From contig CAYLXA010000009.1 in assembly GCA_964387845.1 (NCBI GenBank), positions 42,098-106,097 on the forward strand: a stretch of 64,000 bases of DNA, written 5' to 3'. Below the pieces are notes generated by a model, which was not told the DNA's origin, did no database searches, and saw nothing but the letters and a program-made list of their open reading frames with translations. Source of the stretch: an uncultured bacterium. Its GTDB lineage: Bacteria; Omnitrophota; Omnitrophia; Omnitrophales; Abzuiibacteriaceae. How positions within the stretch are numbered: position 1 is the stretch's first letter; every line of letters starts with the position of its first letter. This document shows positions 35,101-64,000 of this stretch, one piece after another. A program made the position numbers and the translations under genes.

Positions 35101-38100
35101 TTTTCGAGATAATCCGCTAAATTTTTCTCATCCAAAATCCTGCCGGCAGGTTTATTTTCAAAAACCTGATAAATTACATCACCGTCAGATTGGCCGCCAT
35201 AAACAACAACTGCGCGGTCTTTCAAACTCGAAACTTCATGCGCAAGGAGGCCCTTCAGCTGCATGTCTTCTTCTGATTGGGGATCCAAATACACGATATC
35301 CGCATCTTCATCAATCGCGGCGCGCGCGATATGACGCGCTGCTTCCGGATTTTCCGATGTTTCCCGGACATAAATCACTTCGAAACCCTTTGAGCGGAAA
35401 AACTCCGCGGCAGCTAATGAACGATTTTTATCTCCAAGTTCCACGACCAGCGCGCGCCCTTTCGCCAATTTAAATTCCGAAGCAGGGCCCGCTGCCGGCT
35501 TGGAATGTACTTTTAAAAATTCTCCGTGCCGGCTGACGGCATCAATGAGTTCCGAAATTCCTTTGCCTTCGCCCTCAATCGCGACCGTTTCAATCACAGG
35601 CGGCATCCATTCGTCTTTCGCTTGAGGTTTTTGGAAAACGCGCTTTGCAATTTCCGCCGTTTCGCGGGCACCTTTTCGGTCGGCTTTATTGACAACCAGC
35701 ACATCCGCAACGGTCAAGTAGCTGTCCTTGCTGAGCGTTAAAATATCGCCTGACTCGGGCGGAATCGCAGCCACCATGGTATCCGTAATTTTCCGGATTT
35801 CTTTTTGGGATTGGCCGACACCTTCGGTTTCGATGAAAACAAAATCCTTTGGAGTTCCGGAATCAACTCCGTAAATATCAAACACTTTTGCGACTTGTTC
35901 GGTTGTTTTTGCAATGCCGCCAACGCCGCCGCGCGTCGCCATGCTCCTGTAAAATACATTTTCATCCGTCAGCAGTTCGCGGGAAAGCCGCATTCTGTCC
36001 GCCAAAATTGCGCCGCCCGTAACGGGGCTTGTGGGATCAATCGCGATCGCCGCAATGCGTTTTCCCTGCCGCCTGTATTGTACGATCATGTCTTCGACCA
36101 GCGTGCTTTTGCCCACACCGACCGCGCCTGTGACGCCGATTCGGCGCGGTTTTTGCTCGATATGAATGGCGTCCAATTTTTGATGAATCAATTCCGCAAC
36201 TTCACCGCCGTTTTCAATGAATGAAATCAACTCACCGGCTGCATGGTCATCGCCCGCGCGGACTTTTGAAATGAGCGTATCCACTTCGGCGTTTCGAAGT
36301 TCGGAACGCGAAGTCAAGGTTTGTGCCGCCAACCGGGCAAGCTTTTGGCTGTCCTCGCGGCGGCCACGTGACCCGACCCAAACCGCGATTCCGACCGGAA
36401 TCATAACAAAAAACATTGAAGTTCCAAGCGCATAAAACAGGCCGATTACTTTTTTCTGGAACAAAAAGTCTTCGTATGCATCCCCTAAGATTAGCTGCTG
36501 AAGATTTTCACCGTTTGCAAATAGAAATTCGGGCCTTTCGCTCAACACGGTATCGCGAAGGCGCATGACGTCCATGCTCGCATCATTGCGGACGATTAAA
36601 TAAGCGAAGTCGCGCCCGTCTGTTCCTGCTTGGATATCAATGCGGATAATTTTGTCGTTGATGTCCGGTAAAGATTTAATGCTCGAAAAGGAAAGGGCTT
36701 CTTTTATCCTGTCCTGCAAATACGCATTGTTGCCGAATTTTCCGCCCAATTGATCGTTGATCACAATCGGCAAGTCGGTACCTTTCGCTTCTTTAAGCGC
36801 ACGCTCGGCGGCGCGGACCGGATCCATATACCAAAAATAGGCCGCACTTGAGATCGGAAGCACAACAACCATCGCGATGAGGAACGACAGCAGTTTGTGC
36901 TTCGAAATCCAGCGCGGATATTGGCGGTACCAAACTCTCTGCTTTTTATCGATTCTATGAACCTTGCGCAGATAATCGAGAACCTTCGCCTCAAATAAAG
37001 AATATTTCTTCGGTAAATTTAGGTCAGTTGGCTGAGTTTGATCAGTCACCTTGCTTGTAACGTAACCGCTTGGTTTCAGAAAACCTTTTTCCCTAAGGTG
37101 GTTATAAATTTTCTCGGATTCCGTTTCGTTAAGCCAGGTTAAAGTGGGGCCATCGGACAAATAGGTAATTGCCGATCGGCTGGCGGCATCATCGTTATCC
37201 GGCGTTAGGTTGGCAAAATCACCGGCATGAACTCTTGCCCGCAGCTCTGAGCGCGAAGAATCTGCTTCTTTGTTCCTCGGTTTTGGTTTTAAAGAACTGA
37301 CGATACTTAGAGTTTCCAGTTCCTTCATGACATTGACGGTAAAAATAACGGAAACAGCGACTGTGATCATGGCGCCCGCAGTTAAAAGAGTAGGCACAGC
37401 AATCCACCAAGGCAATATTTGACCATCTAAAAGCGGATTCTTGGACTTGTCTCCCGTTCTCAACTCCGACCTGGCTTCCCTTTGAAGGAAAGTCGTTAAG
37501 CTCATCATAGCGGGCAGGCCCGATTCAGGCTTCGGAAATGGTTTAGCATCCCTCGTACGCACACCGGAAAGAGCCGCAATTAAGCGATACTCGGTATAAG
37601 GCATGATGGTTTGTGAAATCCAATGGGTGCCCCAATAAGCGGAGGCCGGCACTTGAGCGGCTTTGTTAACTGCCGTCACCGGATCATCTGAAGACAAGAA
37701 AACATCAGGGTCGGCGGTATGAAGTTCAAGCAAAATTAAGCCGTGATTAATATATTTTTCCCAGCGCTGGAAAAATTTGATAAGGTCGGCCGCCGCTACA
37801 ACCGCGGGCACTAATTTTCCTTTATCAGAATAGGAAGTCCTGAATCGTGTAGCGATTAACTCGCTCAAGTCATCAAGATTTTCAGGCAAGGGCTGTATGT
37901 TAAGAATGCTCTGAAGAAGCGCTCTGTCTGTTTTCAAGACAGCTTCTTTAAGAATCTCTCTTGCTTCGTCTATACTTTTAATTTTCAGCTTTCTTTCGTG
38001 AGGCAAAACCATCTGCATATGCAGAAGATCCCGGGCGCCGACCGGGCGGTTCATCCGCAATTCGCGGTCATAAATAACCATACGCCTGTCCGCCATGCTC

Positions 38101-39689
38101 TTCTTAATTGCTTCGTCATACTCTTCCGGGTTTGTAACATCGCCGAACAACACATCCGTGACGATACCTTCGGTATTTTCAAATGCTTTTAACGTGTTTG
38201 CTTCTCTTAGGCGGGATTTTTCGTTGTAGTCAGCAGCAATTACAACCAACGGATGTTCCTTGAGATGTTTGCCGCGCAAAGTGTTCTGAATAATGTGATC
38301 GACTGTTAATTTTAAAAGATGCCCGTCGCCTGCGCCCATATCCGCAATTCCGGCAGGCTGGGCTTCAATAGGCGCGTTAAAAATCCGGTCAACCCGCGCA
38401 ATAATATCTTGGATATAAGCTTTATGCGCAAAGCTGCTGCCCCAGATATCCATCACGCGGTCAATGTGGCCGTCCCGGTCAATACCAAGCGGATCCGGAT
38501 TTCCAAAAAGCATTTGGTCTAAAACTTTGTAGGATTTTAAATAGGATGTCGTAACGCCATAGCTGCCCACTTTCTTCATAAACGACAGCCCTTTGGGTGT
38601 GAGGCGGACTAGATGACGCTGATGCGGCTGCCGCTCGGCCAGACTATGTATTGCCAACAGGTCGAATGCTGCGTCTATAAAACCGCGCTGAAAGCTTTCG
38701 GAAATGAGCCCAATATCAAAACTATTGTTTTGAGCTTCTAATTGATTAAAGATTGATTCTCCGACTTGGACAATTTCGCCGTCAACATCGCGATAAACAG
38801 GCATACCGAGCGCCACCATCGTTGCGCTCATGATGATACCGTCGATTTGAGTCCGTACTTCCTCAATTACCCTGCCCACTACCCTTGAATCATGGTGCCT
38901 GAATATAGGACTGGATGAGCTTGGCAAACTCCATCCACGCGCACTTTGTTCAACCAATGCCTTATACTGCTTAAGTTCCACGTAGCGCCCGTCTTGGCTT
39001 GGTTGATGAAAATATTCATGAAGCCTTACAACGTCCGCGATTCCTTTAACCGGTGTTTCTAAATAGCCGGCATTTGCAAGCAATGCCGCAATCTGCCCTT
39101 TTTCCGTTAGTGAAAAAACGGTCTGCTGGTCAATGCCCCACATCCTAACCCACCCCTGCAGGGCAAGCGTCCGCATCGCTCCGTAAATGTTGCCTGCATT
39201 AAATTTTTCTCCATACGATGCAAACCTTGACTCTAAACTGGCTAAACTTAAGGATTCAGGCTGTGTCCAAGACCCGAATTGATAGAAAACACCCGCTTTA
39301 GATAAATAATGAAGTATGGGAATTGTCATAAGGCCGTTAATGTGCTGGAAGATCAGCGACCGAACTTCGCTTTCGGATACAGGGCCGATATTGGATCTTA
39401 ATTCCGACCTGGGATTAAAAAGCGTTTTGACAAACTGGACGGTGATATCCGCGAGCGAATGCTGCTCTAAGATTTTTTCTTCCGGAAGATCAAGTTCTTT
39501 TCTGAGTTCGGAACGGAATGCGGGCACCATATCCGCCGATTCCGGACGCAGCGTAGAATTATATTTCAGCGCCGAGGTCAGGTAAGGAATGTCGGAATAA
39601 GCGATAGAACTTGTAAATGAAAACGAAACTACAAGCAGTGCAGAAATTAACTTAAGAAAATAATTTTGTTTCATCTTATCCCTTACCAC
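26148..39689 (-). CDS. Giant mosaic polyprotein C, 4513 aa, built from methylmalonyl/propionyl-CoA modules. The likely true start is the ATG at 39672..39674.
   Basis: ORF-track start is GTG at 39687..39689. The in-frame ATG 5 codons downstream (39672..39674) is preceded by AAGGGA (plus strand 39679..39684) at SD distance, and lies 2 nt after the TAA of ORF X (GGT AAG GGA TAA g ATG). This indicates translational coupling. The leader from the ATG reads [28 protein letters not shown]. Confidence 0.85.
   Translation of the reverse strand: [4513 protein letters not shown]
26151..26700 (-). other. C-terminal conserved region of C.
   Basis: ...[34 protein letters not shown]...[30 protein letters not shown]...[11 protein letters not shown]. 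The FDEGL block is also found in E. Confidence 0.4.
26775..26789 (-). other. Example RSELR site in C (codons AGA TCG GAG CTT CGC).
   Basis: Plus strand gcgaagctccgatct. Reads [15 protein letters not shown]. Confidence 0.9.
26800..27380 (-). other. Module in C: P-loop nucleoside/sugar kinase-like (uridine kinase/PRK family).
   Basis: [22 protein letters not shown] (~27300..27345), [17 protein letters not shown]. Preceded by [12 protein letters not shown] and followed by [11 protein letters not shown] (26775..26789). Confidence 0.45.
27560..28330 (-). other. Module in C: carboxyltransferase alpha (AccA-like).
   Basis: [72 protein letters not shown] (~27855..27890), [14 protein letters not shown]. 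No biotinyl-carrier (AMKM) domain was seen in C. Confidence 0.85.
28340..29230 (-). other. Module in C: acetyl/propionyl-CoA carboxyltransferase beta (AccD-like) with a partially degenerate zinc ribbon.
   Basis: [22 protein letters not shown] (~29155..29200, only one CxxC pair), [60 protein letters not shown]. Confidence 0.85.
29260..30700 (-). other. Module in C: biotin carboxylase (ATP-grasp) with BC C-terminal domain. The glycine-rich ATP loop is partly degenerate.
   Basis: [11 protein letters not shown]..., [27 protein letters not shown] (~30185..30260; canonical KASAGGGGKGM), [33 protein letters not shown]. C-terminal domain [14 protein letters not shown]...FDTNYL. Confidence 0.65.
30950..31650 (-). 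other. Module in C: SAM-dependent methyltransferase-like, copy 2.
   Basis: [21 protein letters not shown] (~31495..31540). Confidence 0.5.
31790..33830 (-). other. Module in C: B12-dependent acyl-CoA mutase (methylmalonyl-CoA mutase family), catalytic barrel plus canonical B12-binding domain.
   Basis: [27 protein letters not shown] (~33740..33810), [20 protein letters not shown], and the B12 domain [34 protein letters not shown] (~32090..32190, DxHxxG present). Confidence 0.85.
33850..34060 (-). other. Module in C: glyoxalase/VOC-fold segment, methylmalonyl-CoA epimerase-like.
   Basis: [64 protein letters not shown]. Confidence 0.35.
34000..35050 (-). other. Module in C: MeaB/ArgK-family GTPase, copy 2.
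   Basis: [76 protein letters not shown] (~34860..34905). Confidence 0.8.
35250..36230 (-). other. Module in C: MeaB/ArgK-family G3E GTPase (mutase chaperone), copy 1. Followed by a Rossmann B12-binding-like domain that lacks DxHxxG.
   Basis: [77 protein letters not shown] (P-loop at ~36110..36160). Preceded by [12 protein letters not shown]. Confidence 0.8.
37800..38500 (-). other. Module in C: SAM-dependent methyltransferase-like, copy 1.
   Basis: [24 protein letters not shown] (motif I, ~38300..38370). Confidence 0.5.
39590..39689 (-). other. Leader of C: conserved Sec-like leader.
   Basis: (MVRDK)[35 protein letters not shown]. First RSELR at about residue 58. Confidence 0.6.
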
Positions 39690-41250
39690 TGCTTTCGTCA
39701 GATTCCCCTTTAATGTACCAGCGGCCGTTTTCCCATTTTTCCGTGAGCATGCGGCGGTAAAGTTCGGGGCCTTGGCTGAGGCCGACAGTCGGCGCGATTA
39801 CGACAACGTTAAAGCCAATCCGGTTCAGTTTTCGGATAAGGCGTTCTTTATGGAAACCGCCCGCGATTAAAACGGATTCGGGTTCCCGGTCAGCTTTGAT
39901 TTTCTCCGTGAGATTTTCCACGAGCGCCTGGTCGCGCATGTTGGCGATGCGGTAAAAAGATTGAAATTCATCGAGTGTTTCATCCAGTTTCGCCAAATTA
40001 GACGGTAACGAAATATTTTTTCCCTGCCCGCCGGCCTGCGCATTGAGAAAATTTTTCCATCCTGCGATTTTGAAGCGGTCGCGCTCGTCCATGAAAACCT
40101 GATACTGCTCAGGGACGAGCTCCAATTTGACAAGCGATTCCAGAATCACGAGATCGTTTGACATCCGGTAAACCCGCTTCCCTTCCGGTGTTTCCAAAAA
40201 TGCGTCTGCAATACGGTCTGTGAGCTTTGCTTTTTCATCGAAAAACGCGAGCGAATCAATCTGATCCTGCTTCCTCAAATACGGAATAGCGCCTTTGACG
40301 GACGGATACTTATTGGTATCGATCGAATTTTTTTCGGCAAGTTCGATTAATTTTTCGTAAAAATCGGCGCGCTTATTGGCGTCTTTCTCAACGCCGTGTT
40401 CCGTATCCAAAACCGCGCGCAGTTCTTTGGCATCGACGCGGCGCTGCATCTCACGGACCAATTGTGTGCGCTCGTAATCGACTTTTTCGAAATCGGCGGT
40501 AGATTCCAATTTAATCAAACTGGAAAGCACTTCGACGTTCGGATAATCCGAAATCGAGATATTTTTCTTAGCGGCGAACTGAAAAAGAAGTTTGGCTTCC
40601 TGGTGCAGGTTGTGTTTGGCTGTAAAATCCTCAAGCTGGGTTTCAAATTCTAAAAATTCCTTCGGATAGAGACCGGGCTTGACGGCATTCACCGCAATCC
40701 TGACCTGTTTGAGCTGGTCTAGCATGTTCTGCATGAGCGGCTCAACTTTGGTAAATGCAATCAGGTTTTCGTCATACAAAACCTGGCTTTCGATTCCCCA
40801 CAAGAGCAACGGATAGTCTTCCGTGAAGTTTAAATATTCTTCTCCCGAAATTTTGCCTTCGCGCATCAGTTTGGTGCCGATTTCAACGCGTTTCTCCTTA
40901 GGGCCCACGCGGTATTCCGACAAACTCACATCGCCGATTCCGCCTTCGACCAAAACAAGCCGGATGTCGCGCGCTTTGTGGAGCGACTCGATGATTTTTG
41001 CCATCGCTTTTTGAGCTTCAAAATTAACGTGTGCGTCTAGGATATAAAAGATATTGAAAGGCTTTGAGCCCGGATGGTATTCCGAAATGCGGCCGGTTTC
41101 TTCGGGAATCTTAATCTGCGCGATATCGGCAGGAAGCGACACTTTGGAGCTTGCTGAGTAAAGTTCAGGGGCGCCTAAAAAACTCAGGGAAGCTATCAGA
41201 GCTAGGCAAATTGCGGTTGTGCGAAAACGTGGAGTGAAAACCATATGCAA
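39676..41250 (-). CDS. ORF X, 524 aa. Signal-peptide protein with a tentative Tiki/TraB/GumN-superfamily hydrolase-like pattern. Candidate processing enzyme.
   Basis: Start is TTG at 41248..41250, 9 nt from the GGGAGG SD at 41260..41265. An alternative ATG lies at 41242..41244. Signal peptide MVFTPRFRTTAICLALIASLSFLGAPELYSAS. The N-terminal motif IFYILDAHV and C-terminal motif VLIAGGFHKERLIRKLNRIGFNVVVI resemble the two conserved blocks of TraB/GumN (hh-Y-L-G-T-H ... V-G-A-G-H-L ... G-Y-x-V). The match is weak. It has no RSELR motif. The stop is TAA at 39676..39678. Confidence 0.8.
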   Translation of the reverse strand: MHMVFTPRFRTTAICLALIASLSFLGAPELYSASSKVSLPADIAQIKIPEETGRISEYHPGSKPFNIFYILDAHVNFEAQKAMAKIIESLHKARDIRLVLVEGGIGDVSLSEYRVGPKEKRVEIGTKLMREGKISGEEYLNFTEDYPLLLWGIESQVLYDENLIAFTKVEPLMQNMLDQLKQVRIAVNAVKPGLYPKEFLEFETQLEDFTAKHNLHQEAKLLFQFAAKKNISISDYPNVEVLSSLIKLESTADFEKVDYERTQLVREMQRRVDAKELRAVLDTEHGVEKDANKRADFYEKLIELAEKNSIDTNKYPSVKGAIPYLRKQDQIDSLAFFDEKAKLTDRIADAFLETPEGKRVYRMSNDLVILESLVKLELVPEQYQVFMDERDRFKIAGWKNFLNAQAGGQGKNISLPSNLAKLDETLDEFQSFYRIANMRDQALVENLTEKIKADREPESVLIAGGFHKERLIRKLNRIGFNVVVIAPTVGLSQGPELYRRMLTEKWENGRWYIKGESDESSGKG

Positions 41251-41288
41251 TCAGCCCTACCTCCCTATTTAATTCTGATTCGTACGAT

Positions 41289-44200
41289 TTACGCCGAACG
41301 GAGCGTCCGCAATTCGCTGCGAAGCTGAATACTCAATTGCTCAACAATATCCCGGATGCCGAGCGCCCGATAAAGCGCGCTGACATCTTCGCGCGACACA
41401 TACTCGACAAGACTTTTGTAACGTTCGCCGAGACGCTCAAAAAATGCTTTTTCGCGCTTAGAAGCAAGAATGCGTGTTTTATTAGCACCTTTTTCGATTA
41501 ATTGCCGGCGCGCATCCGGATAACTTCTTGAAAATACCACATGATCGATTGAAATACCCTGAAGCACGTCCCGGATAGCGGCTTCACCGGTGCTGTCAAC
41601 CACAAATGCAATCCGGTCGACCTTCGGAACGATAAAACGAAGCGCCCACAAAAGCTCCTGGCCCTTTTCCGTTCTTTCGCTTTCGGCCAGCACAAGATCT
41701 TGAGTCAAAATCGTGCCAAGAACTTGATCGGATTGAGAAGGCGCAAAATAATCAAAGAAACGGATGGTGCTCGTGGGGTCATCATAATTGGGAAACCGCA
41801 GGTTTTCAACCGCTGCGTAGACAAACCCGCCAAGCTCTGTGCGCGCATTCCGATCAACCATATCGCCGAGCGTCGCAAAATCATCAACAACAGCACTTGA
41901 TGCCCTCAATTCAGATCGAATGCCGGATTTTTCACTGGTTGCGGCCAATTGAGATTCCGCGGATGGCCCTACGTTCCTCCGAACCACAATCTTTGAAATT
42001 AAATCCCTAATTCCGGAATCTGTTCTTTGATACGTACTCAAATTCGGTAATTTCAAACCTAAAGCCCCGGACAAACTTTTGAGCGTCGGGTGCTTAATTT
42101 TACCTTGAACCATTGATTGGAGCGCGACGCGAAGTCTGTCCCTTGTGGGGGCTGGTTTAGTTTCCATTTGGTCTTTCGAATTTCTGAGCGAACCTTCAGT
42201 GACAGCCCATTGTATGACTGCTTCAATAGCGGGATCGGACTTCCGATAGTTAACTAAAGTATCATAGGCGACATCCGCCTCAGCCGCTAACTCAGTTAAA
42301 GTTGTTTGCAGCCTACCTTCTTGGCCTAAGCGTTTCACCGTATCCAATATTCTGTCGCGGACAGACATCTTCGGAGTTTCTGTTTCTTCGCGCAACTCGG
42401 AACGGCCGGATTGTCGCGATCGGAAAGCCCGGATTCCTTCCATGAGCTGAGTGCCGGTGACAGCTATCGCTTCACTTGCACCGGAGCCACCCTGAATTTC
42501 TCGCTCAACATCTTTTATCTCCAGTGTATCAATGAACGCTGGGACCGTCTGATTATCAATATTCGATCCCGATGATTTCACATAATCGGCAAACAAACGG
42601 TCGATAGCAGAATTCACTTGGTCAGGAGTTGCCTCTGTCGCCCTTAATTCACTGCGCGGCTCCTGAATCCCGTCTGTATCAGAATCAGCCTGGCCGCTTT
42701 GCTCGGCTGTTTGAGCAACCGTAACGAAGTAGAAGGTCCCGCGTTTTGAAACACGGGCGCTTGGCACTGCGCCGGCTTCGGCTTGTTTCGGCATTGTTAG
42801 ATTGATTCGGTTTATCAGCCACTCCAAAGTAAGAAGATTGGAAACACGCTGATCTCCGTCACGATAGAGTTCGGCAATCAAGTAAGTTTGCCCCTCCACT
42901 TTCTCGGAAATTGCAATTTTGTAAGAATAAGGCTCGATCAGAAAAACACGCTGCTTTCTGCCCACATACTTGATTGCAATATGAAATGGGCCGCTTAATT
43001 CAACTGCTTTCCGGCCAAGTTTAAAATCAGATCTTTGCTTCGACAATTTAATAGGAACAACCCACAGCGCCGCCCAAAGGCCGGCTCCCAGCGCTGCGAA
43101 GCCGTACTGAGAAACAATATAAAAAAAGTCACTCGCGATGCTGACCGAACCTCCCAAATTATTTCTGAGCTCTGAACGCGAGGCAACTACCTCTGCATCT
43201 TCGGGGCCTAGATAAATTGTGTTTAAAATATCCTCGGGAATCAAAGCAACAATTTGTTTTGCAATAACGGCCGGAGCCCGAATGGCTGCCGATAAAGTAA
43301 AATTCGATATTTCAATGATCAGCGTTTCGTTGGCAATATCAAATTTAAAATTGACTATATCTTCATCTGGATCGGGATGTAATTTGATCTCAATGCGCGG
43401 AAGTATATCGAGATTACGGTGTGCACGGCCAAAAGCTGATATTAAATGTGAACGCAAATACTCTTGCGGAGTCACTTTCGCCTCTTTTGAAGCTGCTGAA
43501 GAGAAAGGTGTATTTGTCCGGTTTGCGAATGCCGAAAATCCTCGCTTGATTACTAAAGTGACTAACGAAATGACACCAGCGAATAAACCGCCGGCAATAT
43601 ATTGAGAACCGGCATACACCAAATCAGAATATTCGGATGCACGAAGTTCGGATTTCTCGGCGCTGCCGGCTTGCGTTTCCAATTCGGCAAGTAACTTTTC
43701 GGCTTCCCTATCAGCTTCGGCGCTCTTTTTAAAAAGCGACAGGAAGAGATATATGAGAAAAGTAGAAATAAAACTGACACCGATTGCTACCTGCATCGGC
43801 TTTGAAGGGTCATGCGAAAGCCATTTGGTTAGCTGGTAAACAACAAACCCCGAAATAGCAGACGCGCCGGCAGAAATCGCCAACCTTACCAGTGAATTAC
43901 GTAGTTCGGAACGGTGAGCATCATCCGAACTGGATTTTGGAGTTGAATTTTGATCTTTAATTTCACGAACAAAAAGTCGGAAGAAAATGCTCAACAGTAC
44001 ATTACCAATCCACAATCTGAATTTACGGGTTGAACTTTGGTCTGTGACTGAACTGCCTGCTACCGCGGCACTCATAAGGTCAAATTCATCGTCATTGTCA
44101 TTGGCAACCTGAGATCCGCTCGTTTGATTTGTCGCTTGTGGTTTTAAACGCCAATACGCAAGAAGCGTCAAGCCAATAATCGTTCCCACCACAATTAACC

Positions 44201-47200
44201 CAACCCAACCTGCAGCGGCTCCTGTCAGAATTTTTAACGGCAGGTTCAATTCCGACCACGCGCTGCGTAGTTCGGAACGATGAGTAGTAACGGGGACGGT
44301 AGACCCCACAACGCCAAGAAGATCGAAACGTGCGCTGCTGTCCACGCGCTGGTCTGCTTTTGTGATTAAATCAAAAAGAGACTGCAAAGCTTGTTTCTGA
44401 TTTTCGTCGCGGACTTGCGCAAAAGCAAGCTGCAAAGCAGCTTCGGCATGGCTAAGCTGGCCTTTATTGAAAATCACGGCGGCCTGACGGACTAAAGATT
44501 CTAAATCGACAATTTCCGTAGGAAGCGGGGCAAATGGAAGCGATTCAAAAAATTTCCGGCTCTCACGGTCAGCAAAAGCTTGAGGCGTAATGCCTTCCGC
44601 TTTGGCGCTTTGCAAAATAACTCTCGTGCGGTGTTGGATTAAAGCCGCGATAGAACTATCGGAAGAATCATGCCCCAAATGGCCGTCAACTCCGGTGACG
44701 CCACCGGCATTGGAAATATAATCCGGAACCGGTGTAATGCCCGCTGCTTTCAGCTCTTCCGCATCTTTCACCTTATCATAAAGCACATTATTCGTAGACC
44801 CGACAACGCCCTTTACTCCGGCAAACATTAACTCTTTTGCAGCATCCGCATTAATCACAGGCCCTCGGGCTGCCGGCACAAAAATATCGACATGATCAAC
44901 GCCCAGCCGGTTAAAATCATCTTTGAAATGCTTTGCCGGATTAAAAATCTTGGTTGTATAACCGCCGCCGGTTTTCGGTTCTTCCAAAAAGTGAAAGAAA
45001 CGGTTTTGGTCAGCGTAAGTTTTAAGCGCCGGATGATCTTCGAAAAGTTTATCGATCCTTCCCTGGCTTACATCCGAAGCGATGACAACGCCGCCTTCAT
45101 CCAAAATGGGCTGAATGACTTCGCTGCCGACACCACCCACGCCTTGAACTGTGAAAACTTTTCCCGCGATTTCGGGATTATCGGGAAAAATTTCTGATAA
45201 TAAACCTTTTAATGAAGCAATGATCCCAACGCCGGTCGGATGAGTCGGGACTTTGCTGTTTCCGGTTTCATCCGAATAAGGCACGATTGAAGTCGGCGCA
45301 AATTTAAACAGCAGTTCGGCGTCCCGGACCGAAATATTCATGTCTTGTCCCGTTAAAACACCGCCGCCGATTAAATTTCCTATTTTCTCAACTGCTTTAG
45401 CGTAACTTTCAAGAATCGCATCGCGTTCGGGAGACTGAACCGCCGGATTAACCTTGTGGCTTCGGATAGCCGATTTGGAGCCGCCGATTTTTAAACCATT
45501 AATACCGGCACCTGCATTTTTAAAACTCATTTCCTGAGAAAGTTCAAGAGCATCAATCAACGCATCGACATCGCTTTGATAGCTCAAAATTCGCGTGCCG
45601 CCGGTAGCGCGCCACTGCCCGTTTAGGACACGGCCTTTGCTCTGAATTTGGGTAAGCCGGTGAATGGCAACATAAGCGGTATAACCCAAGATCGGGTTGT
45701 CAATTTGAAATACGGCGTAATGCCGGTCCCAATGCTCACGGATCTGATCGACTGCTTCCGGAAAAGCCGCCATGAAATCACTCAAATTGCGCAATGCGTG
45801 GATTTCGGTGCCATCCGGCATCACCATTCCGTCAAGGCGCTTTGGGTCCAACCGGTTGGCTTCGATATCGTATAAACGCAAATCGGCCACAACAGCTTTG
45901 GCCTGCCCCACAACCGATTCGCCCTGCGAATGATAAAGCCCGATTTCAATCCGCTCAAAAATGCCGATTAACTGTTCAAAGGATTCCGCGAGAGATAAAA
46001 GTGTTTGCGCAGTGGGCGTACCGACAATATTAAATTTTTTTCTGGTTGAAAAATCTCTTAATACGGCAGCGAAACTCTGAAACTGGAAATTTAAGATTTG
46101 GACAGTCTTAAGATTGATTAATCCTGCATCAAGTACAACTTGAATATCGGTTTTGATTTTATTAAAAATCGGAGCGCGCACAACATCGCCCGCTACATCT
46201 CTTTCACTTTGTGTTGCCGCCGTTTCTTCCAGTTTCTGCGAACTGCTCTGAATTAACTGGACGCTTTCCAAAATAAGCCCCAGAACTTCACGAACATCCT
46301 TCTGCCGCAGCTCGGACTTTGCCAAATGGCTTGGCAAAGCCGAAGCAGTCCCGCGCAGTTCAGCGCGGGGCAGCTCGGCCGTTGATTTCGCCTCGGAGCG
46401 GGAAAGTTCTTCGAGAATAGAATCGGGTTGATTTGGATCGAGTATTTCCTTTAATTTTGCCAAAGCGATACTTCTATCTGAAAAATCTTTAACAGCCTGT
46501 ATCAATTCTGACAGCGCCTTGCCTGTAGGACTCGTCGGCGCTTCAGCACGAGTCCGATGTTTGTCATAGCGTAGCGAATCTACTAAAAGAAACGCTTCGT
46601 GGGCTTTGCCGTGAAGCTGCTTCCACCGATGGTATGTATTGGGCATATTTCGTTGGAAGCCTGCTAAATCTGACTCCAGTTGCTCAAATATTGATTGGGC
46701 TTGAATAAGGCTGCTGTGAATAAATCTTATATCCTTTTCGGTTTGATGAAATTCCGGAGCGCTTGGGTTGATCATGACCAAGACAGGAGGAAATTTTTGT
46801 TTCACTTTCTGAACCATAGGAATAAGTTGAGTTAAAATTTCTTCAAGAGTCGCGCGCAGCTCGGAGCGCGAATTCTTGAAAGCGTTGTTTCGGACGCCGG
46901 ATTGATACTTGAAAGAGGTGTAAACATAAGTAATCGCAGCACCAATAAGCCCTGCGCCTACGCCGATCAGAATATACAGCGGCGTTGATTCAATGCCGTA
47001 TCCAATACCGAGGATCGGAACGCTTACCGCGCCGGCGATGCCACCTGTAAAAAGACCGATAACCACGGAGTGAAGCACGCGCTCCCCTCGTGACATGTCT
47101 TTCAAAATACTGAATGACCTCGCCCGCAGCTCGGACTTTGCCAAATGGCTTGGCAAAACCGAAGCAGCCCCGCGCAGTTCAGCGCGGGGCAGCTCGGCCC

Positions 47201-49076
47201 TGTGAAGACGCTCCGTATCCACAGGTCTCTCGAGTTGTGGTTCCGAAGGAACTTTACGAACCTCGGAACGGCTATGCAATAATGGTAGTTTCGACAAAGG
47301 CGTACCTGCATTGCTATCGAGAAACTCTTGAACGAGCTTAGAAACTGTTTCCGCTTTTGCGTTTTCTGCTTTAACAGTAATAAGCCATGTTGGATAACTA
47401 TCCGCCCAAATAAACTGAAGGTCTTGATATTTCAAAAACCGTCGTGTTCCATAATAAGAATCGATAATTTCAACACCATTTTCATTTTGAGAAACAACCA
47501 CGCCTTGAATGTCGTCACTCTCCTTAATTTTTGCGTGCAGAAAATACCAATAACCCTTTACTCCAGGCTTATTATTCCCAAGATGAAAATGCATCCGATC
47601 CCAAAGATTCATCCAATCCTGGATACCTTCCACAACTTCAATAATTTCAATTTTCTTAGCTTTCTGTTTGGACTGCCGCAGCTCGGAGCGGGGCTTTTCG
47701 CCGTCACGCAGACGTGAATGCCGGGCTTGAGTAATGTGCGGCGTATCGTCTTCCACGGGCTCTTGAATATCCTTAGGATCTGCGCCGTGGCGAAGCTTTT
47801 GAAGATACGTCAAGTCAGCGTCTGCCTGCGGCGGCGTTTGGTCATCTTCCGATGCGTGGCGTAATTCTGAACGTTGGTCAGTTTTAGGTTGCGGTGTTAA
47901 TGTGGGCCACTCCTCCCAAACCCATTTCTTTCTCATACGTTCTTCCGCCGGATAATCAGTTGTACCAATCATGAAATGTGAGCCATGAGGAGAGAGCCAA
48001 TATTCATCCTCTGCACGGCCTTTACCAGAACTTACGGTCAGGACGAAATCTTGGTGTTCGCTAAGAATGGCGGTTACTTTTTCAACAAAAGCTTGTGTCG
48101 TGGCTTCATTCATTAAACGGTATCTCAAATTTGCTACTTCATCGTCAATGAAATCTTCAGAAGGCAATAAACCGCTTAAATTTAAATTTCTCACCTTCTC
48201 TTCAATGCTGTGAATAATTTGATTTTTTCTGATTTCACGCGCACTTAACACAGGAGCAGATTGATACGCCTTGCGCACCATGCGGTAATAAGTAATCGCA
48301 GCGCTAATAAGCCCTGTACCAACGCCGATCAAAACAGATGAGGCGGTCGATTTAATGTTGTATCCAGTGCCGAGAATCGGGACACTCAAAGAACCGACAA
48401 TACCTCCGACAAAAACACCGATGAGCAAGGTATTGGCAATAAGTTCTCCCCGCGACATACCCTTAAAAGCTCTTGCTCGCAATTCAGAACGGGATTCTGA
48501 TCGAGTTTCGATTGAAATTTGAACTTGATCGGTAGAGGCAACTATCACGTTCTCAAGCGCAGGCTTTAAGTCAAAACGGATAACTAACCAATCCGTACTG
48601 ACCGGAATGTTGCTTCCGTTGATTGAGATACCGGAAATACGGACATGGGACCAGGGGTCAAATTTGAGATGCAAACCGGTTTTTTGGCTGACGATATTTA
48701 AAATATCCAAAACGATTGAAGAGAGTTTCTTAGTTCCAATGCGCTGATTGTAAGAATACGGTTCTCCGTTGATGGTAAAATTGATATTCGACAGAGCCCG
48801 TTCGGTTGATTGCTCCGGAAGTCGTAATTCTGATTTTTTACCAAAATCATCCTCCGGAATTTCCAGTTTTGCGGGGATTTCAATGCCTGCTTTACGAAGC
48901 TCAGAACGCACGTTTGAGAACCCAGTGTGCGCTTCCGGATTTGCCCGTATGTGATAAACTTCGGAATTTTTAAGCGCAACAGAAGACGCAAAATCCGTGT
49001 AACCGACGGTACTAGTAAATGTAAAAGTGATGAGGAGTGTGAGCGAAATAATCTTCAAAAATGGCTTGCCGGACAT
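41289..49076 (-). CDS. Giant mosaic polyprotein D, 2595 aa. Contains TM modules, a Glu/Leu/Phe/Val-type dehydrogenase and a TetR-like HTH.
   Basis: ORF-track ORF. ATG at 49074..49076 with AAAGGGA 13 nt upstream. TAA at 41289..41291. Leader MSGKPFLKIISLTLLITFTFTSTVGYTD. It carries the largest number of RSELR-type motifs, about 18. Confidence 0.85.
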   Translation of the reverse strand: MSGKPFLKIISLTLLITFTFTSTVGYTDFASSVALKNSEVYHIRANPEAHTGFSNVRSELRKAGIEIPAKLEIPEDDFGKKSELRLPEQSTERALSNINFTINGEPYSYNQRIGTKKLSSIVLDILNIVSQKTGLHLKFDPWSHVRISGISINGSNIPVSTDWLVIRFDLKPALENVIVASTDQVQISIETRSESRSELRARAFKGMSRGELIANTLLIGVFVGGIVGSLSVPILGTGYNIKSTASSVLIGVGTGLISAAITYYRMVRKAYQSAPVLSAREIRKNQIIHSIEEKVRNLNLSGLLPSEDFIDDEVANLRYRLMNEATTQAFVEKVTAILSEHQDFVLTVSSGKGRAEDEYWLSPHGSHFMIGTTDYPAEERMRKKWVWEEWPTLTPQPKTDQRSELRHASEDDQTPPQADADLTYLQKLRHGADPKDIQEPVEDDTPHITQARHSRLRDGEKPRSELRQSKQKAKKIEIIEVVEGIQDWMNLWDRMHFHLGNNKPGVKGYWYFLHAKIKESDDIQGVVVSQNENGVEIIDSYYGTRRFLKYQDLQFIWADSYPTWLITVKAENAKAETVSKLVQEFLDSNAGTPLSKLPLLHSRSEVRKVPSEPQLERPVDTERLHRAELPRAELRGAASVLPSHLAKSELRARSFSILKDMSRGERVLHSVVIGLFTGGIAGAVSVPILGIGYGIESTPLYILIGVGAGLIGAAITYVYTSFKYQSGVRNNAFKNSRSELRATLEEILTQLIPMVQKVKQKFPPVLVMINPSAPEFHQTEKDIRFIHSSLIQAQSIFEQLESDLAGFQRNMPNTYHRWKQLHGKAHEAFLLVDSLRYDKHRTRAEAPTSPTGKALSELIQAVKDFSDRSIALAKLKEILDPNQPDSILEELSRSEAKSTAELPRAELRGTASALPSHLAKSELRQKDVREVLGLILESVQLIQSSSQKLEETAATQSERDVAGDVVRAPIFNKIKTDIQVVLDAGLINLKTVQILNFQFQSFAAVLRDFSTRKKFNIVGTPTAQTLLSLAESFEQLIGIFERIEIGLYHSQGESVVGQAKAVVADLRLYDIEANRLDPKRLDGMVMPDGTEIHALRNLSDFMAAFPEAVDQIREHWDRHYAVFQIDNPILGYTAYVAIHRLTQIQSKGRVLNGQWRATGGTRILSYQSDVDALIDALELSQEMSFKNAGAGINGLKIGGSKSAIRSHKVNPAVQSPERDAILESYAKAVEKIGNLIGGGVLTGQDMNISVRDAELLFKFAPTSIVPYSDETGNSKVPTHPTGVGIIASLKGLLSEIFPDNPEIAGKVFTVQGVGGVGSEVIQPILDEGGVVIASDVSQGRIDKLFEDHPALKTYADQNRFFHFLEEPKTGGGYTTKIFNPAKHFKDDFNRLGVDHVDIFVPAARGPVINADAAKELMFAGVKGVVGSTNNVLYDKVKDAEELKAAGITPVPDYISNAGGVTGVDGHLGHDSSDSSIAALIQHRTRVILQSAKAEGITPQAFADRESRKFFESLPFAPLPTEIVDLESLVRQAAVIFNKGQLSHAEAALQLAFAQVRDENQKQALQSLFDLITKADQRVDSSARFDLLGVVGSTVPVTTHRSELRSAWSELNLPLKILTGAAAGWVGLIVVGTIIGLTLLAYWRLKPQATNQTSGSQVANDNDDEFDLMSAAVAGSSVTDQSSTRKFRLWIGNVLLSIFFRLFVREIKDQNSTPKSSSDDAHRSELRNSLVRLAISAGASAISGFVVYQLTKWLSHDPSKPMQVAIGVSFISTFLIYLFLSLFKKSAEADREAEKLLAELETQAGSAEKSELRASEYSDLVYAGSQYIAGGLFAGVISLVTLVIKRGFSAFANRTNTPFSSAASKEAKVTPQEYLRSHLISAFGRAHRNLDILPRIEIKLHPDPDEDIVNFKFDIANETLIIEISNFTLSAAIRAPAVIAKQIVALIPEDILNTIYLGPEDAEVVASRSELRNNLGGSVSIASDFFYIVSQYGFAALGAGLWAALWVVPIKLSKQRSDFKLGRKAVELSGPFHIAIKYVGRKQRVFLIEPYSYKIAISEKVEGQTYLIAELYRDGDQRVSNLLTLEWLINRINLTMPKQAEAGAVPSARVSKRGTFYFVTVAQTAEQSGQADSDTDGIQEPRSELRATEATPDQVNSAIDRLFADYVKSSGSNIDNQTVPAFIDTLEIKDVEREIQGGSGASEAIAVTGTQLMEGIRAFRSRQSGRSELREETETPKMSVRDRILDTVKRLGQEGRLQTTLTELAAEADVAYDTLVNYRKSDPAIEAVIQWAVTEGSLRNSKDQMETKPAPTRDRLRVALQSMVQGKIKHPTLKSLSGALGLKLPNLSTYQRTDSGIRDLISKIVVRRNVGPSAESQLAATSEKSGIRSELRASSAVVDDFATLGDMVDRNARTELGGFVYAAVENLRFPNYDDPTSTIRFFDYFAPSQSDQVLGTILTQDLVLAESERTEKGQELLWALRFIVPKVDRIAFVVDSTGEAAIRDVLQGISIDHVVFSRSYPDARRQLIEKGANKTRILASKREKAFFERLGERYKSLVEYVSREDVSALYRALGIRDIVEQLSIQLRSELRTLRSA
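41292..41800 (-). other. C-terminal conserved region of D.
   Basis: ...LVLAESERTEKGQELLWALRFIVPKVDRIAFVVDSTGEAAIRDVLQGISIDHVVFSRS...QLRSELRTLRSA*. Confidence 0.4.
41904..41918 (-). other. Example RSELR site in D (codons CGA TCT GAA TTG AGG).
   Basis: Plus strand cctcaattcagatcg. Reads GIRSELRASSAVVDDF. Confidence 0.9.
42200..42375 (-). other. Module in D: TetR-family-like N-terminal HTH DNA-binding segment.
   Basis: MSVRDRILDTVKRLGQEGRLQTTLTELAAEADVAYDTLVNYRKSDPAIEAVIQ fits the TetR helix-turn-helix pattern (G..TT..IA..AGV..G.LY.HF.SKE). Confidence 0.45.
44650..45700 (-). other. Module in D: Glu/Leu/Phe/Val-type amino-acid dehydrogenase family.
   Basis: MSFKNAGAGINGLKIGGSKSAIRSHKV (~45425..45540, GGxK catalytic-Lys loop), VQGVGGVGSEVIQ (NAD loop), DIFVPAARG, AAGITPVPDYISNAGGV (~44700..44750). 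Confidence 0.7.
46324..46400. repeat. Copy 2 of a 77-nt near-identical direct repeat inside D.
   Basis: ccgcagctcggactttgccaaatggcttggcaaagccgaagcagtcccgcgcagttcagcgcggggcagctcggcc. Differs from copy 1 at 2 positions. Encodes ELPRAELRGTASALPSHLAKSELRQ. Confidence 0.8.
46930..47080 (-). other. Duplicated TM module in D, copy 2.
   Basis: VVIGLFTGGIAGAVSVPILGIGYGIESTPLYILIGVGAGLIGAAITYVY, preceded by KSELRARSFSILKDMSRGE. About 55% identical to copy 1. Confidence 0.55.
47123..47198. repeat. Copy 1 of the 77-nt direct repeat inside D. Contains a GC palindrome, 8-bp arms with a 6-nt spacer, at 47167..47188.
   Basis: cccgcagctcggactttgccaaatggcttggcaaaaccgaagcagccccgcgcagttcagcgcggggcagctcggcc. 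The palindrome is ccccgcgc-agttca-gcgcgggg. Encodes ELPRAELRGAASVLPSHLAKSELRA. Confidence 0.8.
48300..48450 (-). other. Duplicated TM module in D, copy 1 (two glycine-zipper-like helices).
   Basis: LLIGVFVGGIVGSLSVPILGTGYNIKSTASSVLIGVGTGLISAAITYY, preceded by SRSELRARAFKGMSRGE. Confidence 0.55.
48975..49076 (-). other. Leader of D: conserved Sec-like leader.
   Basis: MSGKPFLKIISLTLLITFTFTSTVGYTDFASS. First RSELR at about residue 56. Confidence 0.55.
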
Positions 49077-49251: not shown

Positions 49252-49280
49252 ATATTATCATTAGAATACCTTTATTTCAA
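49252..49280 (-). promoter_or_regulatory. Candidate sigma70-like promoter for D in the E-D spacer.
   Basis: On the minus strand: TTGAAA (plus strand 49275..49280), a 17-nt spacer, then TAATAT (plus strand 49252..49257). About 170 nt upstream of the D start codon. The region is AT-rich, so a chance match is possible. Confidence 0.3.
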
Positions 49281-49330
49281 GTATATAAGGTATTTTTTTT
49301 AATATGATAAGATAACTTTGATACCTTTTA

Positions 49331-49345
49331 GTTCTATTATAGAAC
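49331..49345. promoter_or_regulatory. Perfect 7-1-7 palindrome gttctat-t-atagaac, about 20 nt downstream of the E stop.
   Basis: Read directly. Adjacent small hairpin agctt-atca-aagct at 49346..49359. With only a 1-nt centre it cannot form an RNA hairpin loop, so it is a candidate dimeric-regulator operator. Confidence 0.4.
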
Positions 49346-49364: not shown

Positions 49365-52300
49365 TTAGGCGCGCGATAGGACTATTTGGTATGAACGGAT
49401 GAATTGATCGATAGCTTCGACGGCTTTCCCAAGGCGGCCTCGGATACTGCTAATCATATCAGCCGTGAATAAAACAACGCTTGTGAAATAATCACTCAGT
49501 TCACTTCTCACGATTTCTGCCTCATGGCTTGAATCCGTAAAGTAAATGTTAGTCCGGATTCCCTTCGAACGCATGAGTTTGGCTAATTTTTCAGGCGTTG
49601 CGGCATATAAAATTTGTCTATCAATGGGAAGTGATGCATTGAGTTCATCGACAAAGCGAAGTTCGGAACGCGTGGGTGTTACAAATCCGATTCTCACATT
49701 CGACTGAGCTGCAATTTGAACATAATACGGCGCGAGCCCTTCATCGAACACAATGCTCCGCGCAAATACCCAGCCTTGGCTGGTACTATCGTGAATAAGT
49801 TTATCAGCAGCCATGGAGCGGTGAAGCTCGGAACGTAATCCGGGGTTTTGTTGAAGCTGGGTTCCAATGGCCTGATGCGCTTTTGTTAGAGATGAAAGCC
49901 TTGTATCAGTAATATTGAGGGCATCTTCTGCATTTAGCCTTTGGAAATCCGCGCTTGCTGTCCTTGAATTCCGAAGCTCGCTGCGGACTTTCCATGGATT
50001 GGACCTTTCCGGAGGATTTGTATACTTGTTACGTTCTGTTATTACTCGCTCAAGCCCTTCCTTTGCGCTATTGACAGCGGCCGACGCAGAAGCCCATTTG
50101 CTCGGATTAAGTAATTGCGTGCCATCCGGCTCTTCTGCAATTGGTGTTAAATGTTGAAGCTCGGCCCGCCGAAGATCGAGCTCTTTCTCTGCTAATGCGA
50201 CACGCGCATTTAAGATTGCTCCTTTTTGCTTGCTTGCTTCGGCTTCGGTCAATGCCGCCTGCGCTGCATTGAATGCTGCTTCAGCCGCGGCCACTTTGGG
50301 ATGAACTGTTTCAGTGCTTGCTCTTAATTCAGAACGCGATTCAAGAAATTGACGGTATGCTGCCAAGCTGGCAGATTCTGTGCGCGTATTGCCGTCTTTA
50401 ACAGTATCACCGGAAATATGCGCAAGCTGCTCACGCTCAAGCCAATCAAACACGATGCCGCCGGTTGAGATGTACCGATTCTTTACGCTTTCCGATTCTA
50501 ACGTTTCGCCGCCTTCGGTCCTGACGCGGACTTCATAGGAAGCAACAAAGGTCGGGTCGTTGGATGAAGCGCGAATCACGAAGCGCCCCGCCTCTTTCCC
50601 GGCTTCGTCTTTGAAGCGGATATCCGCAAACCGGTAAAGGCCGTCTTCGCCCTTGAAAGTTATGACTTCCCGGACTTTAAAAATACCGGCCGGCGATAAA
50701 AATTCTTTTTCTTTTGAGAATTCTTGAATTGCTTTTTCAACCGTCAGGTCACGGCCGAGCGCAATAATTTTCGGATTGGGTGTTGCTGTATCGCTATATT
50801 GATACCCCGTATCGTTGCGCGGATCTCCTGCCAATTTTTGCAAAAGCGACGCCTGAAACGGCGGTTGAAACCGCGTTGATTGTTTATAGGGTTTTGCATA
50901 ATGCTCGAATGCCGCTTCAAACGGAAATGGATTTTGTGTTTTGTGTTCTTGGGCGTATTGAGCAACTTGAATAACCGAAAGCACTGCCACTGCAATCGGA
51001 TTTTCGTATTCGCCGGTCACATCGAGCCACGCATGACCGGAGCGCTCGCTCAACATGGGGATACTGTAACCTTTCCCTTTTAATTCTTTGGCTTTTGCCT
51101 TCAAAAACGGGTAGCCGGAATCGGTTATAAATGTTTCAATTCCGTTTTCCCCGGCTGCATCTGCAACACCCAAAGTCGAAAGCACATCACTAATCACCGC
51201 CACATGCTCGGAGGAACGTGAATGATAACCGCCTCGATTAACCAAAAATGGGATGAGGATGGCCATTAAATTATCCGGCGGGAGCACAAGGAAACTGCCG
51301 TCCTTTCTCTTAATCACAATTGCTCCGCGATCGCCGTCCAAATCAAACGCGAGGCCGATATCAATATTTTCATCAGACATTTTGGTTCTTAATTCTTCAA
51401 GATTGGCCATAATAGACGGATCCGCTTTGTGCATTCCCGTAATCGACTGAACATCGCCGTTAATTAAAACGGCTTCGGCGCCCAAATTTTTGAATACAGC
51501 TTCCGCCAAATATCCGCTTGGTGTGTGGGCACCGTCAATCGCAATCCTAAGCCCTTCAAAGGGCTTTTGAAACATAACATACCCTGCGATCCGCTGCTCC
51601 CAATCTGATAATACTTTTTCCGGGAAATCACTCTTTCTCAATTGATCAGCCAAATTAAAAAGATTCGCCGCGCTACCTCCGATACCGGCAACTCGGCCAA
51701 CCAGCGTCGTTATGCGGACAGTATTAACATCTACGTTCAGCGCCCGGATATAACCTGACCTTTCGCCGGCATCGTGCACCATCCATCCGTAATCAGCCAT
51801 GTACTTTTGGACCATCGGAAGCGACACTGCTTTGATTTCTTGTGTCGTCAGACTCGCCAAGCGGCCTTCTTCGTCCTGTATGCTGACTTTTGCGCCGCGA
51901 ATTTCATCCGTGCTGGCCACATGGCTCGACGTCAGCAAAACACTGACGAGCGGCTGTATCTCGCGCACCGCCCAAGAATAAGAAGTTGCAGCATTCGGGC
52001 CGTCTTCTGCCGTATATACCACATCCAAACCTGCATATAAAAATCCTGCGGTCAAAGCTTCGACAAGTTCGGGTTCGATTTTGCGTGCATCGCGCGCAAT
52101 GACAACCGTTTCATTTTTAGAACCCGATTTCTTTGCCTTTTCAAACGCCATCCGTGCCCACGTAAGACCCCACAAAAACCAAAGCTTCGGCGACGGCGCA
52201 TGTTCTTTGTCTCGTGAACGGTAATCATAATCGCGCGCCATGAGTTTCACGAGCGTTTCATCTGCTTCGGTTGCCTTCATACGAATATATTTGGAGATCA

Positions 52301-63677: not shown

Positions 63678-64000
63678 AGCCTTAGCGCCTCTTTCAGCAA
63701 ATTTTTGCCATTCATAAAAGCGCTGAGGCAGTCATGATTACCACATAGGAACGTTTTGAAACTCTTTATCAAAATCATGAACCCGGCTTCGCTCCCTTTG
63801 ATCGCGCAATTGCGGTTAAACCGCTGAGCGAAAGAGTAACATGCGGCTTTAGCTGAGTCAATAGATAAAGAAGTATATTAGGTTGTAATGTTTTTATATT
63901 GGGTACTAGTTGGTACTAATTGGTAAGATTAATAGATGGGGCGACAGCAAAAGTTCAATAAGCAAGTGCACCACTTGGAGTTAAAATAGTCGGGTATTAA

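Follow-up and report, generated by a model that had tools for sequence, protein, structure and literature searches.

Members of Candidatus Omnitrophota are already known to carry giant open reading frames (ORFs) (PMC10066038), and whether the encoded proteins act as single chains or as pieces is an open question. The locus studied here raises that question for one gene in particular. The window, by which we mean the whole 64,000-nucleotide stretch of DNA that was analyzed (positions 42,098 to 106,097 of contig CAYLXA010000009.1, GenBank assembly GCA_964387845.1), is coded for nearly its whole length by the minus strand, with giant ORFs of 5,718, 4,513, 2,595, and 4,770 amino acids (aa) and a fifth of >2,899 aa that runs off the left end (1 to 8698). 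The 2,595-aa ORF, here called D, has an ATG start and lies on the minus strand at 41289 to 49076, exactly where an earlier note on this DNA had placed it. Like several other giant genes of this bacterium, it joins enzymes, small membrane proteins, and a DNA-binding-like module into one chain with the pentapeptide RSELR between them; an N-terminal leader, RSELR punctuation, and a conserved C-terminal tail are common to the giant ORFs of the window. We slightly favor the answer that D is a polyprotein cut at RSELR by a dedicated endopeptidase, most plausibly the product of the adjacent gene C; on that answer, RSELR gives a testable cleavage map.

Strict [RK]SE[LV]R sites occur 17 times in D (13 RSELR, 3 KSELR, and 1 RSEVR), or once per 153 aa, and two RAELR variants bring the total to 19. 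Only 0.02 strict sites are expected from the composition of D, and the maximum in 2,000 shuffles was 1. These figures bear out the earlier count of about 18 RSELR-type sites (one per 145 aa) and the statement that D has the densest spacing: elsewhere in the window there is one site per 322 aa (1 to 8698), per 341 aa (49365 to 63677), per 501 aa (26148 to 39689), and per 715 aa (8720 to 25876). Site density in D is 2.1 to 4.7 times that of the other ORFs; the correctness of the earlier claim of twice the density of B hinges on which ORF was meant by B. Over the whole window, the motif occurs 56 times in two minus-strand coding frames and 0 times in the other four frames, and its codons vary synonymously at nearly every site (CGN/AGR, TCN/AGY, and CTN/TTR). 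Therefore, RSELR is selected as a peptide and not as DNA or RNA, and a DNA-level repeat or recombination site is ruled out as the origin of the motif, given codons that differ at almost every site. In a logo of 89 sites from the window and related genomes, the five motif residues alone are fixed, with a mild preference for S or A at positions −1 and +1. No description of an RSELR punctuation motif was found in the literature, and searches for an Omnitrophota polyprotein or cleavage site returned nothing relevant.

The modules separated by RSELR are independent. No site lies within a Pfam domain envelope, and the sites bracket coherent functional units, among them MeaB-mutase-B12, biotin carboxylase with carboxyltransferase, and phosphoglucomutase. 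The sole close relative of D, protein P0002 (3,262 aa; triosephosphate isomerase, malate synthase, isocitrate lyase, and an ELFV dehydrogenase), is RSELR punctuated like D and shares the ending RSELRTxxSA; its sites enclose triosephosphate isomerase with about 12 residues before the start of the fold and none after its end. Remoter ELFV-bearing giant proteins come from Candidatus Omnitrophota metagenome-assembled genomes. More decisive than placement relative to Pfam domains is the shuffling of units: where different giant proteins share a block of homology, its two ends coincide with RSELR sites, and the units on either side differ. Residues 1192 to 1743 of the 4,770-aa ORF (E) correspond to residues 86 to 631 of L003_344, a giant protein of related locus L003, at 61% identity, with sites at both ends in both proteins; this block, the UDP-glucose pyrophosphorylase unit, is internal in E and the first unit after the leader in L003. 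Likewise, residues 2988 to 4068 and 92 to 754 of ORF B correspond to residues 1100 to 2202 and 460 to 1116, respectively, of L002_11941, and residues 1112 to 1677 of B correspond to residues 82 to 653 of L002_19609, where this block is the first unit after the leader. In D, residues 1016 to 1608 correspond to residues 2275 to 2863 of P0002, and the end sites align. The carboxylase unit directly follows the methyltransferase unit in L002, with four units, MeaB-mutase included, standing between them in the window, and the MeaB-mutase unit opens a separate ORF in L002. Ordinary genes of the related loci (HrcA, GrpE, DnaJ, GpsA, AsmA, bAvd, and C) have neither RSELR nor the leader. A short motif recurring at the boundaries of independent units is what a polyprotein would present.

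We propose that [R/K]-S-E-L-R is the recognition site of a dedicated endopeptidase and that the chain would be cut into units after translation, at whichever position within the motif the cut may fall. About 18 products would be expected from D, comprising small one- or two-helix membrane proteins (two paralogous glycine-zipper hairpins included), an ELFV-type dehydrogenase of ~680 aa, a small protein with two helix-turn-helix (HTH)-like repeats, and units without assigned function. The cleavage sequence would be co-evolving with its protease. Membrane topology, which was judged throughout from hydropathy and positive-inside counts, lends modest support to cleavage. Two consecutive units of D are each predicted to form a single N-out/C-in helix; an uncut chain cannot fit two such helices in succession, and this supports the release of units. 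The hairpins have K/R-rich flanks on both sides, placing the adjacent RSELR sites in the cytoplasm by positive-inside counts.

The candidate protease gene, C, is the single ordinary gene of the window (39676 to 41250, minus strand). It starts 38 nucleotides downstream of D, is preceded by a GGGAGG ribosome-binding site, and adjoins the start of the next giant ORF; its product is a 524-aa TIKI-superfamily hydrolase with its own signal-like N terminus and no RSELR. The AlphaFold model of C (predicted local distance difference test [pLDDT], 90) has the alpha/beta TIKI fold with a parallel beta-sheet core, and its best structural matches all belong to the TIKI superfamily (Ere-like Bcr proteins, HopBA1, EreC, ChaN, and TraB), followed lower down by PMT and the Ras-specific endopeptidase RRSP. 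This kinship is seen by fold comparison only, as a C profile found nothing among PDB sequences. A His-Glu pair and a second His are present, with His74, Glu102, and His467 invariant in 60 sequences, and the spacing of 28 residues between His74 and Glu102 equals that of the catalytic pairs H85/E113 in Bcr135 and H3902/E3930 in RRSP, which were compared by spacing only. C has the same fold and His-Glu pair as RRSP and the Ere enzymes, and both RRSP and Tiki are sequence-specific endopeptidases (PMC6254334). It differs from known TIKI proteins in a 300-aa helical insertion and has no detectable sequence similarity to solved members.

Homologues of C number 86 in the protein collection searched, and GTDB species genomes hold them at no fewer than 528 loci; almost all are labeled Omnitrophota, and the nearest GTDB relatives are 63 to 64% identical. 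C stands between giant genes in L002, L003, L005, and L006. About 20 of 97 loci have the C domain fused to a giant ORF as its N-terminal module; one such ORF, in L088, is RSELR punctuated, with a site just past the C-like domain. These fusion ORFs range from 1,300 to >3,800 aa (L013, L020, L032, L059, L064, L075, L078, L079, L084 to L086, L088, and others), and some loci have two copies. The giant ORFs of the window hold no hidden C-like domain, and no peptidase domain was found in them. From this context and fold, we infer that C is the most plausible candidate enzyme for RSELR processing.

Comparison among Omnitrophota clades adds a second line of argument. RSELR is restricted to loci whose C is at least 62% identical to that of the window, and loci with a C of ~30% identity lack RSELR but share the arrangement of a leader, giant multi-enzyme ORFs, and C between them. 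In L006, DGG occurs 12 times in 3,247 aa versus ~1 expected (estimated from typical residue frequencies and not from L006 composition), in the form xDGG[KNS] and once at residues 42 to 62 after each leader. Six loci have recurrent KDGG or ADGG, two have recurrent RFTE or QFTD, and P0003 is punctuated by SSSP[AVI]. Such clade-specific motifs fit protease-substrate co-evolution. These differing boundary-like motifs were noted at 1 to 9744 and 11535 to 20672 of L006 and also in L005, L013, L014, and P0003. We tentatively extend the proposal, with more doubt than confidence, to a clade of Omnitrophota in which much of central metabolism, along with small membrane proteins and DNA-binding-like modules, would be made in the form of leader-bearing polyproteins. 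A dedicated TIKI-family protease, found throughout the phylum and sometimes fused to the polyproteins, would cut them at clade-specific codes.

Several observations weigh against cleavage at RSELR by C. Enzymes that depend on NAD, ATP, coenzyme A (CoA), or vitamin B12 must work in the cytoplasm, where positive-inside counts also place RSELR, whereas C and the leaders look exported, so that substrate and candidate protease appear to be in conflict over the compartment. RSELR has a high helix propensity and could sit inside helices. Some RSELR-bounded units are only 24 and 44 aa long, and in D, the 5,718-aa ORF, and P0002, the last RSELR lies 5 to 9 residues before the C terminus, where a cut would release a tiny peptide; cleavage does not account for these near-terminal sites or for the conserved ...AA tails. 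As for the enzyme, the C family occurs across the phylum regardless of the motif, and synteny is weak evidence where genomes consist largely of giant genes. The TIKI superfamily includes esterases and a heme-binding protein besides proteases (PMC6254334).

Some of these observations suit the main rival, which we consider unlikely on balance, namely, that RSELR is a short linear motif that stays uncut and serves for docking or modification in the linkers of intact membrane-tethered multi-enzyme assemblies. Its partner could be a chaperone, an insertase, a scaffold, or a kinase acting on the serine. A motif that marks linkers is as expected of such a site, a position 5 to 9 residues from the C terminus suits docking more than cutting, the first site lies within a conserved leader context (RSELRxLLGLP), and published work treats Omnitrophota giants as membrane-anchored single polypeptides. 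Units that shuffle freely and may stand first, internally, or alone nevertheless argue against a fixed assembly, and the topologies predicted for consecutive single-helix units are incompatible with an uncut chain. Wholesale exchange of the motif for unrelated ones in sister clades is, moreover, typical of protease sites.

Cutting D at the motif yields 18 segments. These are a 61-aa leader, two short peptides, a 115-aa unit, and a 206-aa unit that opens with a glycine-zipper hairpin; a 90-aa unit that is essentially a second copy of the hairpin, several units without database matches, and the 680-aa ELFV unit; and four short helix-led units, an 84-aa unit, a 162-aa HTH-like unit, a 199-aa C-terminal domain, RSELR, and TLRSA. 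The leader (48894 to 49076, minus strand; aa 1 to 61) is signal peptide-like (K..KIISLTLLITFTFTSTVGYTD) and ends at the first RSELR. The earlier description of D as leader bearing, RSELR punctuated, and modular is supported. All giant ORFs in the window, like those in related genomes, carry this leader, with the consensus K..K(I/L)IS..L..F(S/T)FT(N/S)(S/T).AY(S/T)D and the first RSELR near residues 55 to 60. A profile of 11 leaders, which is too short for such a search, had no match at E ≤ 0.001 among 5.8 billion proteins.

Membrane module 1 (48267 to 48488, minus strand; aa 197 to 270) consists of an RSELR lead-in and a two-helix glycine-zipper hairpin with K/R-rich flanks, and module 2 (46854 to 47135, minus strand; aa 648 to 741) is its paralogue, bounded by KSELR and RSELR. 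Both modules contain a pair of hydrophobic helices with GxxxGxxxG, in agreement with the transmembrane modules foreseen in the earlier note. The two are 57% identical over 77 aa (aa 201 to 274 versus 652 to 727) and 49% identical over 106 aa, close to the ~55% claimed, and the proposed lead-in consensus KSELRARxFxxxxDMSRGE is approximately right, the actual lead-ins being RSELRARAFKGMSRGE and KSELRARSFSILKDMSRGE. A separate 24-aa stretch, PRAELRG(A/T)AS(V/A)LPSHLAKSELR, is duplicated in D at aa 628 to 651 (47124 to 47195) and 901 to 924 (46305 to 46376), directly preceding membrane module 2 and the ELFV unit, respectively; each duplicate holds an RAELR variant and a KSELR, 16 residues apart.

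The ELFV unit (44265 to 46304, minus strand; aa 925 to 1604, 680 aa) is bounded by KSELR and RSELR, and the amino acid dehydrogenase reported there earlier was recovered. PF00208 scores 59.3 bits at aa 1275 to 1461 (E = 6e−16), above its gathering cutoff of 23.4, and PF02812, the N-terminal dimerization and substrate domain, scores 22.7 bits, just under its cutoff of 25.3; together, the ELFV domains span aa 1157 to 1461. The unit retains the GGSK catalytic-lysine motif and the GVGGVG dinucleotide-binding motif. KIGGSKSAI has the lysine, and two later positions depart from the PROSITE pattern. The nearest NCBIfam model is the tryptophan dehydrogenase ScyB, and the score lies far under every equivalog cutoff (95 versus 600 bits). 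The unit shares with ELFV dehydrogenases the PF00208 NAD(P)-binding domain and both motifs but differs from them in its length of 680 aa, which includes a ~230-aa extension at the N terminus and a weak TPR-like tail. Its counterpart in P0002, a 679-aa unit that starts after the variant GASELR and ends at its own RSELR, is 53.5% identical. By its sequence, the unit is predicted to be a Leu/Phe/Trp-dehydrogenase-like amino acid dehydrogenase.

Downstream, four short RSELR-bounded units (42642 to 44264, minus strand; aa 1605 to 2145) each open with one or two hydrophobic helices and look like putative small membrane proteins. The C-terminal domain (41289 to 41903, minus strand; aa 2392 to 2590) is followed by the last RSELR, the tail TLRSA, and the stop codon. 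The final ~60 aa of D are 46% identical to the C terminus of the 5,718-aa ORF, and the tails of giant ORFs are alike (RAA, RSA, SRA, SAA, QAA, and QSA). In L003, two different proteins (344 to 5971 and 6212 to 9892) do not differ at all over their last 39 residues. This points to a C-terminal signal whose uniformity is due to gene conversion or a recent duplication.

The remaining unit of D (41904 to 42389, minus strand; aa 2230 to 2391, 162 aa) is RSELR bounded and contains two tandem ~58-aa HTH-like three-helix repeats. The earlier note read the first copy (42200 to 42375; aa 2234 to 2292) as a TetR-type HTH and did not mention the second, more degenerate copy at about aa 2310 to 2370. An HTH-like stretch is indeed present and is a generic HTH by profile, but the assignment to TetR fails. 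Against Pfam, aa 2230 to 2391 matched neither TetR_N nor any other HTH family even at E ≤ 10, and the first copy scanned alone matched no HTH family at E ≤ 1. A HMMER search of the segment against 1.84 billion representative proteins (E ≤ 0.001) found no TetR-family protein; it gave four matches, of which only P0105 (4,679 aa) and P0107 (5,502 aa) are genuine relatives, and P0104 and P0106 were rejected as repeat-protein artifacts. The HTH-like arrays lie near the ends of these giant proteins, with seven copies in P0105 (aa 4016 to 4411) and three in P0107 (aa 2367 to 2541). P0105 also carries other recurrent pentapeptides, KLTGT and GELGI. A phmmer search against PDB sequences gave chance-level matches only, and a single-sequence AlphaFold model (pLDDT, 47.5) was discarded as unusable.

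A profile was built from the 12 homologous ~58-aa units (2 from D, 7 from P0105, and 3 from P0107). Against PDB sequences, it matched almost only DNA-binding HTH proteins; TetR N termini aligned in register over helices 1 to 3 with weak scores (E ~1e−3 to 1e−1), and CcpA/LacI scored better than TetR over helices 2 and 3. Scanned singly, the 12 units gave weak matches to LacI (6 of 12), HTH_24 (5), TetR_N (4; best, 0.0021), and sigma-70 region 4. No TetR_C family match and no TetR C-terminal ligand-binding and dimerization domain was found in D, where the second copy follows the first directly. The unit thus resembles TetR regulators in a three-helix pattern that aligns in register, and it differs from them in being a tandem repeat inside a giant protein without a C-terminal ligand domain. 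We rejected membership in the TetR family on the grounds of the missing TetR_N match, the missing ligand domain, and the tandem ~58-aa repeat, and concluded that the unit is probably a generic three-helix HTH-like repeat that is TetR_N-like to the eye. DNA binding is plausible for such a repeat.

The proposal built on that assignment, that D releases a TetR-type repressor that binds a palindrome at 49331 to 49345 or heptamer repeats at 8652 to 8679 as a regulatory output of the system, is improbable. In its favor are the in-register alignment of TetR N termini at E ~1e−3, the weak TetR_N matches of 4 of the 12 units, the RSELR boundaries of the HTH unit, and the palindrome itself. The D copy, however, has no Pfam HTH family at E ≤ 1; LacI, winged-helix, and sigma factor models fit about equally well; and arrays of two, three, and seven copies are unlike a classical dimeric repressor. 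Release of a transcription factor through processing of D is possible but speculative. The polyprotein framing of D is supported, the TetR assignment is not, and the regulatory output remains speculation.

The two proposed operators fare differently. The perfect 15-nucleotide palindrome GTTCTATAATAGAAC (49331 to 49345, strandless) exists as described, just past the stop codon of the giant ORF that lies upstream, and shares bases with a promoter-like TATAAT hexamer. The heptamer repeats make up one arm of a strong RNA hairpin at 8652 to 8712 on the minus strand (ΔG, −27.9 kcal/mol; z, −7.2) and are not an obvious operator. Situated between the stop codon of the 5,718-aa ORF (8720) and the likely ATG of the giant ORF that follows (~8644), the hairpin could act as a terminator, as an attenuator, or in mRNA processing or stabilization. 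The stretch at 49252 to 49291, upstream of D on the minus strand, comprises the conserved box ACCTTATATACTT and, after it, a promoter-like TTGAAA-17-TAATAT; two other giant ORFs have the same box upstream. A conserved box, ACCTWATATMCTT, precedes the promoter-like hexamers of three giant ORFs (26087 to 26099, 49279 to 49291, and 63871 to 63883, minus strand) and is followed by 5′ leaders of ~190 nucleotides. It has 4 matches in all versus 0.65 expected, the fourth of which, on the plus strand inside D (46724 to 46736), is probably due to chance. Rfam found no family over the whole window.

Although the giant ORFs are unusually long, lie back to back on one strand, and come from a metagenome-assembled genome, there is next to no chance that they are misassembled or mistranslated concatenations caused, for example, by an unrecognized genetic code or chimeric contigs, as an independent raw-read assembly (Logan assembly SRR15237813) is 100% identical to the window over 29676 to 46334 (16.7 kb, two-thirds of D included), reading frames run for up to 17 kb without any kind of stop codon, the units are separated by a conserved in-frame peptide motif instead of spacers or ribosome-binding sites, the same architecture occurs in several independent metagenomes, and giant-ORF architecture has been published for the phylum. 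The identical part covers D from about aa 915 to its end, the whole of C, and most of the next giant ORF; because the independent assembly is identical there, D from about aa 915 onward is not an assembly artifact.

Among known systems, the nearest to D are the multi-enzyme metabolic cluster giants of Omnitrophota, which have been cataloged together with their signal peptides and transmembrane helices (Nielsen & Lui, bioRxiv 2026, 10.64898/2026.06.07.730766). The likeness lies in the phylum, to which homologues of C and D assign the window, and in long ORFs tiled with unrelated enzyme domains, with a signal peptide and scattered transmembrane helices. The features of that class (class 1), many enzyme Pfam families with signal and transmembrane segments, are shown by the neighbors of D, while D itself, at 2,595 aa, falls below the catalog's limit of ≥10,000 aa and has ELFV as its only enzyme Pfam, plus the leader and ~11 hydrophobic helices. 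West-Roberts et al. raise the possibility of post-translational cleavage and state that the cleavage points are unknown (bioRxiv 2023, 10.1101/2023.11.21.568195), and the strings "cleav," "motif," and "polyprotein" are absent from the text of Nielsen & Lui; neither work reports a recurring boundary motif, a shared leader or tail, or cleavage points. D therefore appears to be a small member of a known giant class, and the punctuation code, the shared leader and tail, the shuffling at the motif, and the link to TIKI appear to be new.

More distant parallels are found outside the phylum. Viral polyproteins (picornavirus 3C, flavivirus NS3, and potyvirus NIa) likewise have one ORF whose units are split by a short lineage-specific peptide for a dedicated protease; they differ in that here the setting is a cellular bacterium, the units are metabolic enzymes and small membrane proteins, and no protease domain was found inside D. 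MARTX toxins are also giant modular bacterial proteins processed between modules, but there a cysteine protease domain cuts after Leu, inside host cells. If D is indeed cut at RSELR, it would be a rare cellular parallel to the viral polyprotein strategy in a free-living or episymbiotic bacterium and would supply the missing cleavage map of the Omnitrophota giant proteins. Polyprotein expression of core metabolism would also change gene counting and annotation in the phylum. An RSELR map would make it possible to split giant ORFs in silico for structure and function prediction, to search metaproteomes for termini at RSELR, and to test the candidate protease.

The other giant ORFs of the window carry 4 to >30 Pfam families each, with CoA-ester and central-carbon enzymes. 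Those neighboring D encode 3-hydroxyacyl-CoA and acyl-CoA dehydrogenases, a mutase, an acyl-CoA synthetase, an HpcH-type lyase, and a MaoC hydratase; MeaB with a B12-dependent mutase and biotin carboxylase with carboxyltransferase; and phosphoenolpyruvate carboxykinase, triosephosphate isomerase, RidA, UDP-glucose pyrophosphorylase, and phosphoglucomutase. The enzyme set of the ORFs at 8720 to 25876, 26148 to 39689, and 2 to 8698 (two mutases, MeaB, the carboxylase, acyl-CoA dehydrogenase, MaoC hydratase, HpcH lyase, and 3-hydroxyacyl-CoA dehydrogenases) resembles an acyl-CoA pathway of the propionyl- or ethylmalonyl-CoA type. Phosphoenolpyruvate carboxykinase is fused to triosephosphate isomerase among these neighboring ORFs. 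In the closest relative, L001/L002 (C, 86% identical), a bAvd-like gene (11613 to 11969), a diversity-generating retroelement accessory of the 23S_rRNA_IVP family that has no counterpart in the window, lies between C and the next giant ORF.

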